Shown here in pieces: positions 2,785 through 33,713 of a DNA stretch of 39,641 nucleotides (positions are counted from its first letter, which is position 1; each line of letters starts with the position of its first letter). The position numbers and the translations under genes are program-made. The notes below the pieces were generated by a model. That model made no database searches and was not told the DNA's origin. It worked only from the letters and a program-made list of their open reading frames with translations. The DNA comes from an uncultured Pseudomonadales bacterium. Lineage in GTDB: Bacteria; Patescibacteriota; Microgenomatia; UBA1400; UBA12028. Where the stretch lies: the NCBI GenBank assembly GCA_964364145.1, contig CAYILC010000002.1, positions 1 through 39,641 of the forward strand. The letters run 5' to 3'.

Positions 2785-3390
2785 CTATCCTAAAGCCCGA
2801 ATAATATTTCTGTCGATCTCGATCATTTTTCCTTTGCGAGACTCAAAAAATGGCAACTCATATTTCAGTACATAGTCAATAAACAACACACCATCAAGAT
2901 GGTCAAGCTCATGTTGAATCACTCGAGCAAAAAATCCTGCAAATTTCTCGGTTTTTTCTTTGAACTGTGATGTGGTATATCGCAGTGTAATCCAAGAAAA
3001 ACGCGGAACTGGCCCATATAAACCTGGAATGGATAAACAGCCCTCTAAGATAGGATCATCAGAATTGGGACCAAAGGTTCGGTCTTTAGAGTTTTCAATA
3101 ATCTCGGGATTGATGTATGTTGCAAGCTTGGCTTGTATTTTTTCTTTCTCGTCCGGACGACCTTGATCTGAAGTATTGGAAGAATCCGGAAGATATGTCG
3201 AGAAGATGCGCAGATTTTTGCCAATCTGGGGCAAGGATAGCCCAACGCCCTTGGGATGTGCCTTTTTTTCCAGCGTTTCCTCAAGATTAGCGATATGTTT
3301 GTTGATGAGATTAGGGTTTTTAGTAAGATCAACAGCAACGCTTTTTGCCCGGAGGATTGGATTGGGAACGGTGATGATTGATTTGCGCAT
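2785..3390 (-). CDS. def: Peptide deformylase
   Basis: All three PDF motifs are present: GVGLSLPQIG, EGCLSIPG and HELDHLDG. There is an extra acidic/Ser-rich insertion between motifs 1 and 2. Confidence 0.95.
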   Translation of the reverse strand: MRKSIITVPNPILRAKSVAVDLTKNPNLINKHIANLEETLEKKAHPKGVGLSLPQIGKNLRIFSTYLPDSSNTSDQGRPDEKEKIQAKLATYINPEIIENSKDRTFGPNSDDPILEGCLSIPGLYGPVPRFSWITLRYTTSQFKEKTEKFAGFFARVIQHELDHLDGVLFIDYVLKYELPFFESRKGKMIEIDRNIIRALG

Positions 3391-29749: not shown

Positions 29750-30658
29750 ATGAGGCAAATGATCCTGCTTTCGGGTTCTTCGCATCAAGCATTCGCCAAA
29801 GCACTTTCCAAACAAGCACATATTCCTCTCGCCGAGGTTGATCTTTCCATGTTCCCAAATGGCGATCGTCGCGTGTGGGTAAAAACTTCGGTAGCAAACG
29901 AGGATGTTATTCTTGTTCAGTCGTTTTCTCACCCTGTTGATACACATCTCATCGAGTACGCGTTACTTGTGGATGCAGTAGAACGGGCTGGTGCGCGGTC
30001 CATCATTGCATTGGTGCCGTGGATGGGGTACTCATTGCAGGACAAGGTATTTCGATCTGGCGAACCGATTGCCGCGCGCGTGGCGGCGGATATTATTTCT
30101 CACAAAAATGTAAAGCGCGTAGTTCTCATGGATCTGCACAACAATAGTGTGGCTGCCTTTTTTTCTACACCCACCACCATTTTGAGTCCACTTGAGTTGT
30201 TTGTAGATGACGCACTCGAGCACTACTCGAAAAATGAGTTGGTGGTGATTTCTCCAGACTTTGGTGGGTTAAAACGTGCCTCTGTGTTTGCCAAGGCGGT
30301 GGGAGCAGAGATTCATCATATCGACAAAGTGCGCGACCTTCATACAGGCAAAGTTCAAGCAAAGTTTGTTGGCGGGGATATTCGTGGAAAAGTTTGTGTC
30401 GTTATTGATGACTGCATAAACACCGGTTCAACAATTATCGAAGGAGCTCGGGAGCTCAAAAAACACGGTGCAAAACGTGTAGTGTTCTACGCCACACATG
30501 CATTATTGGGTGGGAATGCCTCTCAAGCGTTGCAAAAAAGCGAAGTCAACGAGGTAGTTGTTTCGGATACGGTCTCGGTTGAAGGAAAAATTTTTCCAAA
30601 ATTACGGGTATTGTCGGTTGTTCCGTTGTTTGCGGAAGCGCTCAAGAAACTCCTCTAG
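29750..30658 (+). CDS. prs: Ribose-phosphate pyrophosphokinase (PRPP synthetase)
   Basis: FPNGD, VLMDLH and VVIDDCINTGSTI PRPP-binding loops. Confidence 0.93.
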   Translation: MRQMILLSGSSHQAFAKALSKQAHIPLAEVDLSMFPNGDRRVWVKTSVANEDVILVQSFSHPVDTHLIEYALLVDAVERAGARSIIALVPWMGYSLQDKVFRSGEPIAARVAADIISHKNVKRVVLMDLHNNSVAAFFSTPTTILSPLELFVDDALEHYSKNELVVISPDFGGLKRASVFAKAVGAEIHHIDKVRDLHTGKVQAKFVGGDIRGKVCVVIDDCINTGSTIIEGARELKKHGAKRVVFYATHALLGGNASQALQKSEVNEVVVSDTVSVEGKIFPKLRVLSVVPLFAEALKKLL

Positions 30659-30933
30659 TAGTCAAAAACTTGCTCTAAAAAGATCCAGTTGATTTCTTTG
30701 TTGAGTGGCGATATATTCACGATACTGTTCGCCGTTCAAGGTAGAGTTCTCATACCTTCGAACGTCCATTTCCTCCAAGCGAGCTCTTTATATTCATCGG
30801 TTGTAAAGAAAGGAGTTTCTTATGTCCAGTTTTAGAAGTTGCGATCTTTGTCATGTTTCTGAATTTTCCTTGCAAGGCACCAAGGCTATTGAGCATAAAG
30901 TGCTATAGACAAAATAAAGAATGAGAAATAAAT

Positions 30934-31341
30934 ATGTTAACAAAACAAGATATTAAGACAATTGAATCAAGCATGTTAAAAGTTTTTGAACAGAAATTCA
31001 TGCCTCAGTTATTGCGGGTATTTGTAACAAAAGCGGATTTGAAGCAGGAGTTTGCGAAACATGATCGAAAAATGGATATACGATTCGAACGGTTAGAAAA
31101 GCGCATAGATCATATGGAAAAACGGATGGATGAACGAATAGATGATGCCAACGAGCGTATGCAGGAAATGCAGTCAACACTGAATACGATTCACCTCAAG
31201 CTTGATCAGCATATTGAAGATACTTCTTCTACATTCACTGCACACCTACGCAGGATTCACGAATTACAAGGTATTCCAGTTTCAGATAAATCCAAGGTTG
31301 CATACACAGCCTTAACAGACGATCCTAAGCCCAAAAAATAA
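30934..31341 (+). CDS. Hypothetical coiled-coil protein (135 aa)
   Basis: Heptad-like repeats of charged residues (RFERLEKRIDHMEKRMDERIDDANERMQEMQ). The gene is flanked by long non-coding stretches, and I recognise no family. Confidence 0.45.
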   Translation: MLTKQDIKTIESSMLKVFEQKFMPQLLRVFVTKADLKQEFAKHDRKMDIRFERLEKRIDHMEKRMDERIDDANERMQEMQSTLNTIHLKLDQHIEDTSSTFTAHLRRIHELQGIPVSDKSKVAYTALTDDPKPKK

Positions 31342-31342
31342 A

Positions 31343-31353
31343 TGTGGTATACT
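31343..31353 (+). promoter_or_regulatory. Extended -10 promoter TGTGgTATACT for the T-box leader
   Basis: The TGGTATACT 9-mer is identical to the one at 34079-34087. The predicted TSS is near 31360. Confidence 0.45.
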
Positions 31354-31359
31354 CCTCTA

Positions 31360-31563
31360 AACCGAAGGTGAGGAGTCCGTTCTTCACAGTTTTCTAAAAA
31401 GAGACCGGTGGCAGGCACAGCGCATCTTGAAAAAGTTGCGCAGAACTTGTTCGGGGGCGCCCGAGATAGCGCAAAGAGATCAAAGCATAGTGGTACCACG
31501 CGTCAAAGAATGACCGTCTGTGCAAATACCAGAATTTCTGGCATTTGAGTGGACGGTTTTTTT
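31360..31563 (+). promoter_or_regulatory. T-box riboswitch leader (tRNA-sensing transcription attenuator) upstream of the csaA-like/proS operon
   Basis: T-box sequence AGCATAGTGGTACCACGCG. The antiterminator is helix A1 CAUAG(31486-90)/CUGUG(31518-22), a 7-nt bulge UGGUACC (31491-97), and helix A2 ACG-c-GUC/GACCGU. This competes with a terminator that reuses GACCGUC. AGAGA (31400-04) and GGUGGCA elements lie upstream. Confidence 0.7.
31512..31563 (+). terminator. Intrinsic terminator of the T-box leader
   Basis: A long imperfect hairpin pairs ACCGUC..CAAAU.CCAG (5' arm) with CUGG.AUUUG..GACGGU (3' arm). It is followed by a run of 7 T (31557-31563). Confidence 0.7.
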
Positions 31564-31591
31564 ATACAATCTAAATCTCAAAGGAGGAGAG

Positions 31592-31669
31592 ATGGGACCG
31601 AAAAACATACAACAGCACATAAAGATCGAGAAGAACGCTACCTTGGGGTTATTGACAAAAAATCTTTAA
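31592..31669 (+). CDS. Possible 25-codon small ORF with a strong SD, immediately after the T-box terminator
   Basis: AAAGGAGGAGAG precedes the ATG, and the translation is MGPKNIQQHIKIEKNATLGLLTKNL. A second ORF in another frame (ATG 31675..31800, MSKYICSEVRKRKNTEEVVLELSNFLSFNEQRLLIQAVRHE) follows 5 nt later. Either could be real, or both could be parts of one frameshifted gene. Confidence 0.25.
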   Translation: MGPKNIQQHIKIEKNATLGLLTKNL

Positions 31670-31877
31670 AACAAATGTCAAAATACATCTGTTCTGAAGT
31701 ACGAAAAAGAAAAAATACAGAGGAAGTTGTGCTTGAACTATCGAATTTCCTCTCGTTTAATGAACAGAGACTGCTCATACAAGCAGTTCGACATGAATAG
31801 CATTACATGGGAAGATTTATGAGATTTTCGCCAGGAAGAAACGGAACCATTGTGTATCTATCAAGGAAAGGAAGTAT

Positions 31878-32222
31878 ATGAGTGCAACAGCAACCTATGA
31901 TGATTTTACCAAGCTCGATATTCGTGTTGGCGTAATCGAAGAAGTTTTGGACTTTCCAGAGGCGAGAAAACCGGCATACAAACTGCACATTAACTTTGGC
32001 CTGGAAATTGGCAAGAAATGGAGTAGCGCGCAGGTTACACACTATTATTCAAAAGAAGAGCTGATGGGAATGAAAGTCCTTGGCGTGGTGAACTTTGCGC
32101 CCAAACAGATTGGCCCATTTATAAGTGAGTCACTTACTCTTGGTGTACCGGACGAGAACCACAACTGTATACTGATATCACCGAGCAAAAGTGGTGCAAC
32201 AATTGGTGGAAAAGTATATTAA
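31878..32222 (+). CDS. csaA: tRNA-binding domain protein (CsaA/Trbp111-like OB fold)
   Basis: FTKLDIRVGVIEEV..FPEARKPAYKLHINFG....SAQVT, and ..LGVVNFAPKQIGPFISE. Confidence 0.85.
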   Translation: MSATATYDDFTKLDIRVGVIEEVLDFPEARKPAYKLHINFGLEIGKKWSSAQVTHYYSKEELMGMKVLGVVNFAPKQIGPFISESLTLGVPDENHNCILISPSKSGATIGGKVY

Positions 32223-32231
32223 AGGAGAATT

Positions 32232-33713
32232 ATGAATCAAACAACACAAACAAAACAAGTGAAAACGCAAGCACAGGCAACCAAAACATTTGAAAAGCGC
32301 GGAGTTACAAAAAAATCAGAGAACATGAGCGACTGGTACATTGACGTTATTGTAAAGTCGGGAATGGCGGATTACTCGCCGGTCAAAGGGTGTATTGTGT
32401 ATCGGCCCCTAAGTTACAGTGTTTGGGAAAGCATTCGTGTAGAGATGGATAAAAAATTCAGAAAAATGGGCATCGAAAACTGTTACTTCCCATTGTTTAT
32501 TCCTGAGTCGTTATTGAAAAAAGAGCAACATCATGTTGAGGGATTCTCGCCTGAATTAGCGGTAGTGACGATTGGCGGCGGAGAGGAATTAGCGGAAAAA
32601 CTTATCGTCCGCCCAACCTCCGAGACGATCATGTATGCCATGTACGCAAAATGGGTGCAGTCACACCGCGATCTCCCAATCTTGCTTAATCAATGGAACA
32701 GTGTTGTACGGTGGGAGAAGCGAACCTACTTTTTCCTGCGAGGAATGGAGTTTTTGTGGCAGGAGGCGCATACCGCACACGCGACGCATGCTGAAGCGTG
32801 GCAGCAGGTACTTGTTGCACTCGATGCGTACGCAGAGATCTATCAGGATGTGTTGGCAATTCCAGTGATCAAAGGTCATAAGAGCGAGGCAGAAAAATTT
32901 GCTGGTACAGACAAAACAACGGCGGTTGAGGTGATGATGCCAGACGGCAAGGTACTTCAAGGCGCAACAAGCCACGATCTTGGTCAAAACTTTTCCAAAG
33001 CATTTGAGATTTCATTCCAGAACGAAAAAAGTGAGACAGTGTTTGCTTGGCAAACGAGCTTTGGATTGTCCACGCGCGCTTTGGGCGCGCTTGTGATGGT
33101 GCACGGTGACGATCAAGGCCTCGTGTTTCCACCAATGGTTGCGCCAACGCAGGTAGTGATTATTCCGATTGGTGACGATGATCAACTCCATGAAATGGCT
33201 GATATGAAGCGTTTGGCTTTGGAGAAAGTTGGAGTTCGCGTGAAGGTTGATATGCGCAAAGAATATTCGTTGGGTTTCAAGCGCAACGAGTGGGAACTGA
33301 AGGGAACGCCAATTCGCATTGAGATTGGGAAGAAGGAACTCGAAACTGGTTCTGTTGCTGTGGCTGTTCGCCATAGTGGGGAGAAGATTGTGCAAGACAT
33401 TGCAACATTAGAAGATGCACTGCCAAAACTTCTTGAAAAAATTCAACAAGAAATGTTTGAGAAGGCTGTGAAGATGCGTGAATCTCTAACTTCGAGCGTT
33501 AAAACATATGCTCAATTTAAAGAGATTATGACAACCAAGCGCGGATTCATTCATGCCATGTGGTGCGAAGATCCAACCTGTGAGGCAAAGATTAAGGAAG
33601 AAACGAAGGCGACCACGCGGTGTTTGCCGTTGGATGCAAAGGAAGAGGTGGGGAACTGTATCTACTGCGGAAAACCAGCTAAACACAGGTGGGTTTTTGC
33701 ACAGGCGTACTAG
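32232..33713 (+). CDS. proS: Prolyl-tRNA synthetase, archaeal/eukaryotic-like type (no INS editing domain)
   Basis: Class II motifs (FRGMEFLWQEAHTAH, SFGLSTR), an anticodon-binding domain, and a C-terminal Zn-binding domain C..C...C.YCG ending in ..FAQAY. Confidence 0.95.
   Translation: MNQTTQTKQVKTQAQATKTFEKRGVTKKSENMSDWYIDVIVKSGMADYSPVKGCIVYRPLSYSVWESIRVEMDKKFRKMGIENCYFPLFIPESLLKKEQHHVEGFSPELAVVTIGGGEELAEKLIVRPTSETIMYAMYAKWVQSHRDLPILLNQWNSVVRWEKRTYFFLRGMEFLWQEAHTAHATHAEAWQQVLVALDAYAEIYQDVLAIPVIKGHKSEAEKFAGTDKTTAVEVMMPDGKVLQGATSHDLGQNFSKAFEISFQNEKSETVFAWQTSFGLSTRALGALVMVHGDDQGLVFPPMVAPTQVVIIPIGDDDQLHEMADMKRLALEKVGVRVKVDMRKEYSLGFKRNEWELKGTPIRIEIGKKELETGSVAVAVRHSGEKIVQDIATLEDALPKLLEKIQQEMFEKAVKMRESLTSSVKTYAQFKEIMTTKRGFIHAMWCEDPTCEAKIKEETKATTRCLPLDAKEEVGNCIYCGKPAKHRWVFAQAY

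Follow-up and report, generated by a model that had tools for sequence, protein, structure and literature searches.

A divergent minimal T-box leader, probably specific for tRNA-Pro, upstream of csaA-like and proS genes in a Microgenomates-like genome

T-box riboswitches have been reported from Firmicutes, less frequently from Actinobacteria, Chloroflexi and Deinococcus-Thermus, and from a few Proteobacteria (PMC2494555), and for Actinobacteria a further model, class II, is given by the TBDB (PMC7778990). T-boxes that act on transcription generally need a long Stem I with a motif of two interdigitated T-loops (IDTM) for fast tRNA capture, and Stem III is described as indispensable for the discriminator and for sensing of the charging state (PMC7583486). 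A literature search, limited to a searchable library, returned no paper linking T-boxes with Patescibacteria or the Candidate Phyla Radiation (CPR). This work concerns an RNA leader encoded on contig CAYILC010000002.1 (assembly GCA_964364145.1), of which the whole analysed stretch of 39,641 nucleotides is called the window. The leader precedes an unannotated open reading frame (ORF-X), a csaA-like gene and proS, the gene for prolyl-tRNA synthetase (ProRS). An initial annotation, made from the sequence alone, had described a canonical-looking T-box switch at this place with a specifier that might read leucine codons. As judged from the comparative sequence analysis presented here, positions 31359-31563 are most probably the 5' leader of the ORF-X/csaA-like/proS operon, a T-box riboswitch of minimal and divergent build with specificity for tRNA-Pro.

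With class I T-boxes (RF00230; Bacillus tyrS and glyQS; the proS leaders of loci L057 and L078) the leader shares (i) the T-box sequence with its UGGNACC bulge of 7 nt, flanked by helices A1 and A2; (ii) a competing intrinsic terminator formed from the 3' strands; (iii) the location in front of an aminoacyl-tRNA synthetase (aaRS) operon; (iv) a predicted specifier that matches this synthetase; and (v) a putative module of Stem II and Stem IIA/B with the F-box-like sequence CCCG(U/A)RAYAGC. Unlike class I members, it has no Stem III, no kink-turn (K-turn) GA motif and no S-turn specifier loop, and the platform that AG bulge and distal loop form is missing. Its predicted specifier lies in an apical loop and ends with G instead of the usual C. 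Stem I becomes a three-way junction through an additional hairpin. In A1, GCAUAG/CUGUGC takes the place of the conserved GGG/CCC, and A2 has A-U and not G-U at its base. RF00230 does not score the leader.

Other features are shared with the ultrashort-Stem-I T-boxes of actinobacterial ileS genes (class II; structures 6UFG and 6UFM, per PMC7583486). These likewise have an apical specifier and no elbow-binding IDTM, and in both types Stem II and a IIA/B pseudoknot, putative in the window leader, follow directly downstream, with decoding presumably dependent on both. The actinobacterial leaders act on translation by sequestration of the Shine-Dalgarno (SD) sequence, whereas the output element in the window is a hairpin followed by U7, with the SD sequence about 20 nt downstream. 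Moreover, the actinobacterial type has kept Stem III and an S-turn of GAA/AGUA, while the window leader has no Stem III and a Stem II loop of CACA/AGAA. The amino acid is proline rather than isoleucine, and the organism belongs to the CPR/Patescibacteria rather than to the Actinobacteria.

A third group, termed sister type below, consists of about 14 non-redundant leaders of Gottesmanbacteria type (among them L003, L004, L008, L087, L092, L122, L139 and L140). They share with the window leader the operon, the apical Pro specifier, the UGGUACC bulge and a IIA/B sequence of the form CGGG-N-CCCG-URAYAGC; Stem III is usually absent from them as well, and a covariance model derived from them matches the window. 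They differ from it by a two-way Stem I without the additional hairpin P3 and by a Stem II of 5 bp with a YYAAKAA heptaloop. Their A1 helix is UAAGG/CCUUA, and Rfam therefore still scores these leaders at 28-48 bits. A further difference concerns the terminator, the 3' arm of which contains the SD sequence in the sister type, with the U-run abutting the start codon. In L003 (2590-2650), L008 (2585-2620), L140 (270-310) and similar loci it is the ATG of csaA that is abutted by U7; owing to the SD sequence within the terminator arm, one hairpin could therefore be terminator and SD sequestrator at the same time. In L054, IIA/B and the T-box sequence are separated by an inserted segment (2385-2465) of about 100 nt that contains direct repeats (AAGTC..TTTATAAACTTTATGACTTTATAGACTTTT).

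Judged by its sequence, the window leader would add a new structural variant to the known riboswitch class of T-boxes. The apparent conflict between specifier and synthetase is ordinary once resolved, and the interest of the leader lies in its minimal architecture and in the phylum.

Homology to T-boxes and comparative structure

Rfam searches at the gathering threshold of the T-box family (93 bits in the Rfam copy used) returned no match in the window and none in 32 related loci. The canonical-looking full-length proS T-boxes of L057 (633-857) and L078 (2662-2890) were missed at this threshold, too. As a positive control RF00230 was run in E-value mode, which yielded 75 bits for L078 (uncultured proteobacterium, metagenome-assembled genome), 67 bits for L057 (Chloroflexota), 48.5 and 31 bits for L003 and L008 (both Gottesmanbacteria), 36 bits for L054 (record label 'uncultured Gammaproteobacteria') and 28 bits for L005 (Patescibacteria group). 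The last four are csaA-proS leaders, whose scores lie below the threshold (E 9e-8 to 0.015).

A second covariance model, R1, was built exclusively from seven sister-type leaders (alignment A4) with the window excluded; its training set includes L003 and L008, i.e. two of the four csaA-proS leaders recognised by RF00230. When the whole window was searched on both strands (79 kb), R1 gave a single match at 31396-31523 (32.3 bits, E 6.4e-7), in which IIA (CGGG/CCCG) and the F-box-like tail are aligned, as are the purine linker, the T-box sequence and A1/A2. Scores were 17-38 bits for the other full-length leaders of the window type and 21-28 bits for the Rfam-verified T-boxes L078, L057 and L031. 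Homology thus runs as a chain from Rfam T-boxes to the sister leaders and from these to the window. In a further 258 kb of CPR DNA, the R1 matches were located directly upstream of csaA except for one pair, L103 and L106. In both of these the match (2099-2184, 35 bits) lies downstream of csaA (1501-1842), which suggests that in some genomes a T-box is placed between csaA and the next gene.

According to ProRS, the window belongs to the Microgenomates/Gottesmanbacteria, the protein being 73% identical to that of L001 and 55-59% identical to those of Gottesmanbacteria loci. As L001, the closest locus by this measure, has no leader, contigs from metagenomes and Logan had to be used. Ten contigs from metagenomes carrying relatives of the window type were found with the CsaA-like protein as query. 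They comprise five independent full-length leaders (L081, L160, L162, L166, L164), two strain variants (L079, L132) and three 3' fragments (L080, L082, L161). In L159, L163 and L165, terminator-only stubs are present.

The six full-length leaders including that of the window were aligned with MAFFT without structural guidance (alignment A3). RNAalifold predicted P1, P2, P3, Stem II and the terminator from this alignment, with 15 of 55 pairs doubly changed. In a hand-aligned table of the helices, whose segmentation was checked letter by letter against the sequences, 19 of 42 pairs showed compensatory changes, and 8 of 260 cells were non-canonical. When applied to the MAFFT alignment, the comparative model was paired at 92.2% as compared with 35-41% in controls in which it had been slid along the alignment, and it contained 16 doubly changed pairs as compared with 0-5; none of 500 shuffles reached the observed values. 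The minimum free energy (MFE) fold of 31359-31476 as a single sequence gave the same helices. An RNAalifold 'covariation' of GCGC with GCGC in L164 was discarded as an alignment artefact, a different hairpin being aligned there.

These comparisons bear out the central claim of the initial annotation, namely a T-box-type antiterminator/terminator switch upstream of csaA-like and proS genes in a CPR (Microgenomates-like) genome. Conservation of the A1, A2 and terminator pairings in relatives, which it had proposed to examine, was found in the form of compensatory or other pair-preserving changes.

Decoding module, antiterminator and terminator

The features of the leader and of its surroundings are compiled in Table 1. 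Stem I is reduced to a 7-bp hairpin (P2) within a three-way junction. Both hairpins of this junction covary: P2 is GUGAGGG/CCCUCGC in L166 and AUCAGGG/CCUUGAU in L164, with a G.U pair replaced by G-C in L160, and P3 is CUCUU/AAGAG in L162 and GUCUU/AAGAC in L164. The apical loop of P2 reads GUCCGU in the window, AUCCGA in L081, L160 and L162, GAUCCGU in L166 and UUCCCG in L164. The corresponding loops of the sister type are AGAUCCGAC, UGUACCGAC, AAUACCGAA, ACCGAA, CCACCGAA(A), AAACCCAAA, UUUCCGG and UUUCCCG. All homologous apical loops thus hold CCG, CCC or CCA, and for no amino acid other than proline is a codon found in each of them. Because proline codons alone have this property and because the regulated enzyme is ProRS, CCG 31377-79 is taken as the specifier, and with it the suspected mismatch between Leu and Pro vanishes. 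Most likely, the switch reads tRNA-Pro at this codon and not tRNA-Leu. From the identity of the synthetase the initial annotation had expected a CCN specifier and had listed CCG triplets at 31362, 31377, 31405 and 31461; all four exist, and it is the second that is displayed in the loop of a covarying hairpin.

The lower helix of Stem II is GUUGG/CCAAC in L166, GCUGG/CCAGU in L164 and ACAGG/CCUGU in L162, and in its upper helix the pair A24-U37 is U-A in L081. Within the internal loop, AGAA of the window sits where the sister type has an AAGAA/AAUAA loop. CACA/AGAA occupies the place equivalent to the S-turn GAA/AGUA, yet its sequence is not that of a canonical S-turn; AGAA may serve as an S-turn-like string of purines. 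R1 aligns the adjacent IIA/B region to CGGG-N4-6-CCCGUAAYAGC of the sister leaders, with IIA invariant. In L164, the region consists of CGG/CCG with the loop CAAG and the tail CUUG.

Between IIA/B and A1, the linker has the layout AAAGAGAU-C-AAA, in which the flanking purines are present and the hairpin between them is gone. Such a hairpin, i.e. Stem III, is found in L166 and L164 between AGAG(A/G)U and the linker bases before A1, which are AAA in L166 and ACAAC in L164. In the Rfam alignment of L003 the Stem III positions are likewise deleted. The hairpin GCGC-CCGAGAUA-GCGC (31457-72), which had been regarded as Stem III, corresponds to the region of the IIA/B pseudoknot. As a candidate for Stem III it was rejected, being 12 nt and not about 4 nt away from A1, coexisting with the true Stem III in L166 and overlapping IIA.

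The T-box sequence, A1, the UGGUACC bulge, A2 and a terminator that reuses GACCGUC and ends in U7 had all been read correctly in the initial annotation. The terminator shares the 3' strands of A2 and A1, and the two structures are mutually exclusive. Calculated energies were -26.5 kcal/mol for the terminator, which is the MFE fold, and -10.6 kcal/mol for the antiterminator; a strong terminator facing a weaker antiterminator is the usual relationship in T-boxes. In L161, A1 is AUACAG/CUGUAU, equivalent to two compensatory pairs. The base pair of A2 is A-U or G-C and its third pair G-C or A-U among the relatives, and the A2 loop has 5-11 nt in close relatives (7 in the window, 5 in L160) and is larger in L166 and L161. 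The terminator is conserved with many pair-preserving changes, its upper stem being wholly different in L161. As in L081, L164 and L166, the SD sequence of the next ORF is located about 20 nt 3' of the U-tract and outside the hairpin. The UGGU of the bulge is compatible with A73 as discriminator base. Bacterial tRNA-Pro has A73. Since the Rfam search was negative, the description 'canonical-looking' holds for the antiterminator and terminator only; it does not extend to the remainder of the leader, which lacks a long Stem I and Stem III and is not matched by RF00230.

The window differs from the strains L079 and L132 at a single position of the leader, A31548, which creates a G31522.A31548 mismatch in the terminator stem; L079, L132 and all other relatives have a pairing C.

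Table 1. Positions of the leader elements and neighbouring genes in the window
Feature	Position	Strand	Description
Leader	31343-31563	+	Between coiled-coil ORF and unannotated ORF (ORF-X)
Stem I domain	31361-31409	+	Three-way junction of P1, J, P2 and P3
P1	31361-64/31406-09	+	ACCG with CGGU; outer pair A-U, G-U or U-A, one A.C
J		+	AAG in window, NAG across leaders; between P1 and P2
P2	31368-31387	+	Ultrashort Stem I specifier hairpin GUGAGGA-GUCCGU-UCUUCAC; arms 31368-74/31381-87
Predicted specifier CCG (Pro)	31377-31379	+	In P2 apical loop
P3	31389-94/31401-05	+	Small hairpin, GUUUUC with GAGAC
Stem II	31411-31450	+	Lower helix GCAGG/CUUGU (31411-15/31446-50)
Stem II internal loop	31416-19/31442-45	+	CACA/AGAA, invariant
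Stem II upper helix		+	GCGCA/UGCGC, apical CUU-GAAA-AAG
Stem IIA/B pseudoknot	31452-31472	+	Putative; IIA and IIB; F-box-like sequence CCCGAGAUAGC
IIA	31452-55/31460-63	+	CGGG with CCCG
IIB	31457-59/31470-72	+	GCG with CGC
Purine-rich linker	31473-31484	+	AAAGAGAUCAAA; Stem III position
T-box sequence	31484-31502	+	AGCAUAGUGGUACCACGCG; read directly from sequence
Antiterminator	31485-31523	+	A1, T-box bulge and A2
Helix A1	31486-90/31518-22	+	GCAUAG/CUGUGC; CAUAG with CUGUG, extended by G31485-C31523
T-box bulge	31491-97	+	UGGUACC, 7 nt, between A1 and A2
Helix A2	31498-504/31512-17	+	ACG-c-GUC with GACCGU; loop AAAGAAU, 31505-11
Intrinsic terminator	31512-31558	+	Hairpin, with overlapping U7 31557-63; reuses GACCGUCUGUG
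Putative extended -10 promoter	31345-31353	+	TGGTATACT; conserved TGnTATACT
prs	29750-30658	+	
Coiled-coil ORF	30934-31341	+	
ORF-X	31549-31881	+	Interrupted by TAG 31798-31800
SD sequence	31583-88	+	AGGAGG, then ATG 31592; opens downstream reading frame
csaA-like gene	31878-32222	+	tRNA_bind (CsaA/Trbp111-like); Pfam tRNA_bind 2.5e-9
proS	32232-33713	+	Archaeal-type; Pfam tRNA-synt_2b, HGTP_anticodon, ProRS-C_1

Strength of the assignment and alternative explanations

Several observations weigh against a proline-specific T-box. RF00230 gave no match at E<=10 on 31250-31650 and none on six other leaders of the window type, and the initial annotation had held that the idea would fail if the T-box covariance model gave no significant hit. 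Since RF00230 scores the control leaders, the model works and the window leader lies beyond its reach; the miss reflects the limits of that model, and the model derived from sister leaders finds the element significantly. A long Stem I is not present, and neither are its K-turn, its S-turn specifier loop or the IDTM of AG bulge and distal loop; the Stem III hairpin is lacking in the window, L081, L160 and L162, which have a single C instead. At its base, A2 has no aminoacyl-sensing G-U wobble; the pair there is A31498-U31517 in the window, in which the uridine is kept, and G-C in L161, L164 and L166. The specifier codon is followed by U in the window and not by a purine, and G31375 and U31380 could pair, leaving a UCCG tetraloop and hiding the codon, a feature specific to the window. 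With regard to the comparative evidence, four of the six full-length sequences are approximately 90% identical, and the covariation stems mostly from L166, L164 and L161 plus a few point changes; the IIB pairing is supported by one divergent sequence, L164. Finally, no tRNA gene was found in the window and no tRNA-Pro gene in 60 related loci.

The leucine reading of the initial annotation amounts to a canonical T-box with a long Stem I at 31362-31454 that is closed by CCGAA/UUCGG, has AGAGA as its bulge and GGUGGCA as its distal loop and presents CUU to tRNA-Leu in front of a ProRS operon. Its letters are present, and GAA-NNN-R is similar to what canonical specifier loops have on their 3' side (GAA-CCG-A in L078 and L057). 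However, CUU 31446-48 pairs with 31413-15 in Stem II and covaries with it: the position reads CCU in L162 and L082 and CCA in L166 and L164, where the opposite strand compensates (A13 to U), and the change in L162 turns G.U into G-C. What appeared as AGAA-CUU-G is an internal loop followed by a paired strand. The closing helix shows no covariation, all three variant cells being mismatched, and CGG 31452-54 is needed by the conserved IIA helix. AGAGA (31400-04) is the 3' strand of the covarying P3 and reads AGAAA in L081, while GGUGGCA spans the 3' strand of P1 and the start of Stem II and varies to GGCGGCA or GGUGACA in relatives. As RF00230, built for exactly such an architecture, finds nothing either, this reading is almost certainly wrong. 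A proline T-box with its specifier at another CCG, either 31362-64 (AAACCGAAG, similar to ACCGAA as found in the L003 and L122 loops) or 31405-07, deserves slightly more weight and is nonetheless unlikely. Four of the six leaders carry AAACCGAA unchanged, a sequence similar to the sister loops AAUACCGAA and ACCGAA, and a hairpin at 31351-76 could display CCG 31362-64. Yet this CCG forms P1 together with CGG 31406-08, with an outer pair covarying between A-U, G-U and U-A, and the flanks are altered in L166 (AGCCGUAG) and L164 (AUCCGCAG) so that the likeness to ACCGAA is lost, whereas the P2 loop keeps a Pro codon in all leaders. The hairpin 31351-76 itself, which is part of the full-length MFE fold, was discarded; it overlaps the conserved -10 box and has two mismatches in L160.

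The two other alternatives accept the RNA structure and concern its function. The leader might be the relic of a decayed T-box that has lost tRNA sensing and whose hairpin and U7 serve either for constitutive attenuation or to terminate the upstream gene, with csaA and proS expressed by read-through or from a promoter in 31564-31877. Absence of Stem III, IDTM and the G-U pair would fit such decay, as would the negative Rfam result, the window-specific G31375/U31380 that could close the specifier loop, and the terminator mismatch at A31548 together with a nonsense codon in ORF-X, both found in the window and not in its strain relatives. On the other hand, compensatory changes preserve all helices, the decoding module included, across lineages with CsaA proteins of only 76-88% identity, and there is no variation in the Pro codon, the UGGUACC bulge or the CACA/AGAA loop. 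The leader directly follows prs in L160 and therefore is not the terminator of the coiled-coil ORF (orf135), and L081, L164 and L166 have no room for an internal promoter between terminator and csaA. Decay is thus improbable, if the least improbable of the alternatives. Highly improbable is a protein effector or obligatory co-factor, either the CsaA/Trbp111-like protein or ProRS, that replaces the elbow platform or Stem III. In its favour, proteins of the Trbp111 family bind the outer corner of tRNA, a tRNA_bind gene lies between T-box and proS wherever the region downstream of the leader was inspected, and the two elements by which the elbow and the acceptor end of the tRNA are normally held are missing from the RNA. 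Many csaA-proS loci have no T-box, however, and no protein-binding motif was identified in support of what is pure inference. Moreover, ultrashort actinobacterial T-boxes bind tRNA without a protein (PMC7583486).

A functional tRNA-Pro switch is favoured over a decayed one because the decoding module has been kept by compensatory change and because a terminator of -26 kcal/mol precedes proS, with no space left in L081, L164 and L166 for an internal promoter. With such a terminator in front of an essential aaRS gene of the single-copy type, antitermination would have to work.

Proposed mechanism and gene context

In the proposed mechanism, the nascent RNA would fold into a decoding module consisting of P1, P2 with CCG 31377-79, P3, Stem II with its CACA/AGAA loop, and IIA/B. 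The anticodon of tRNA-Pro(CGG) would pair with CCG in the P2 loop, and by analogy with the actinobacterial ileS T-boxes the codon-anticodon duplex would probably be buttressed by the purine loop of Stem II (AGAA plus a cross-strand A) and by IIA/B. An uncharged tRNA would pair through its 3' ACCA with UGGU 31491-94 and stabilise the weak A1/A2 helices; their formation would block the terminator and allow RNA polymerase to read into ORF-X, csaA and proS. With the tRNA charged or absent, the terminator would form and transcription would stop at approximately 31563.

It appears about an even call whether the leader represents a CPR-specific, previously undescribed class of transcription-terminating T-boxes with an apical specifier and without elbow platform, Stem III and G-U sensor pair. 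The missing contacts might be replaced by the three-way junction with P3, by IIA/B abutting the discriminator or by the Trbp111/CsaA-like protein of the operon. The architecture combines the truncated decoding module of translational actinobacterial T-boxes with a transcription terminator. If functional, it would contradict both the generalisation on long Stem I and IDTM and that on Stem III; it would also be a smaller minimal T-box and provide a natural test of which contacts are needed for co-transcriptional sensing of tRNA. More generally, a lineage of aaRS leaders in Microgenomates/Gottesmanbacteria would use T-box logic. Part of this lineage is invisible to RF00230, and riboswitch censuses of the CPR may therefore undercount T-boxes.

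The box TGnTATACT upstream of P1 is kept in the window, L081, L160, L162 and L166 and is TATAAT in L164; in L160 it is located inside the end of prs. This conserved extended -10 box suggests a transcript start at approximately 31359-61, right at P1.

The order T-box, csaA, proS is also found in L003, L004, L005, L008, L054 and many metagenome loci, and a gene with a tRNA_bind domain lies between T-box and proS in the leader-bearing loci whose downstream region was checked; in loci from metagenomes and protein collections the presence of csaA is not independent, csaA having been the search query. Many csaA-proS loci carry no T-box (L006, L058, L009 and many of L088-L142). In L001, prs is followed directly by proS without leader and without csaA (2900-3010). 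The leader and csaA module is thus variably present among the relatives. In L160 the leader begins within the 3' end of prs (300-330), while in the window (30658-31343) and at least in L162 a coiled-coil ORF of 135-149 amino acids is inserted between prs and the leader.

ORF-X, a conserved frame of about 100 amino acids between terminator and csaA, overlaps the csaA start by ATGA. It has no Pfam match and no conserved canonical start codon in frame, and it is missing from L081, L080, L159, L164 and L166. At the position of the stop codon TAG 31798-31800 of the window, L079, L132, L160, L162, L082 and L102 have TGG. A 25-codon ORF (31583-31669, + strand), preceded by the strong SD sequence AGGAGG and starting at ATG 31592, lies in the +1 frame relative to ORF-X and has the same length in L160, L162 and L082. 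A -1 frameshift joining the 25-amino-acid ORF to ORF-X was considered and rejected, as neither L160 nor L162 has kept the slippery sequence A AAA AAU that precedes the stop of the short ORF. Where the two frames overlap, the substitutions look more synonymous in the frame of ORF-X.

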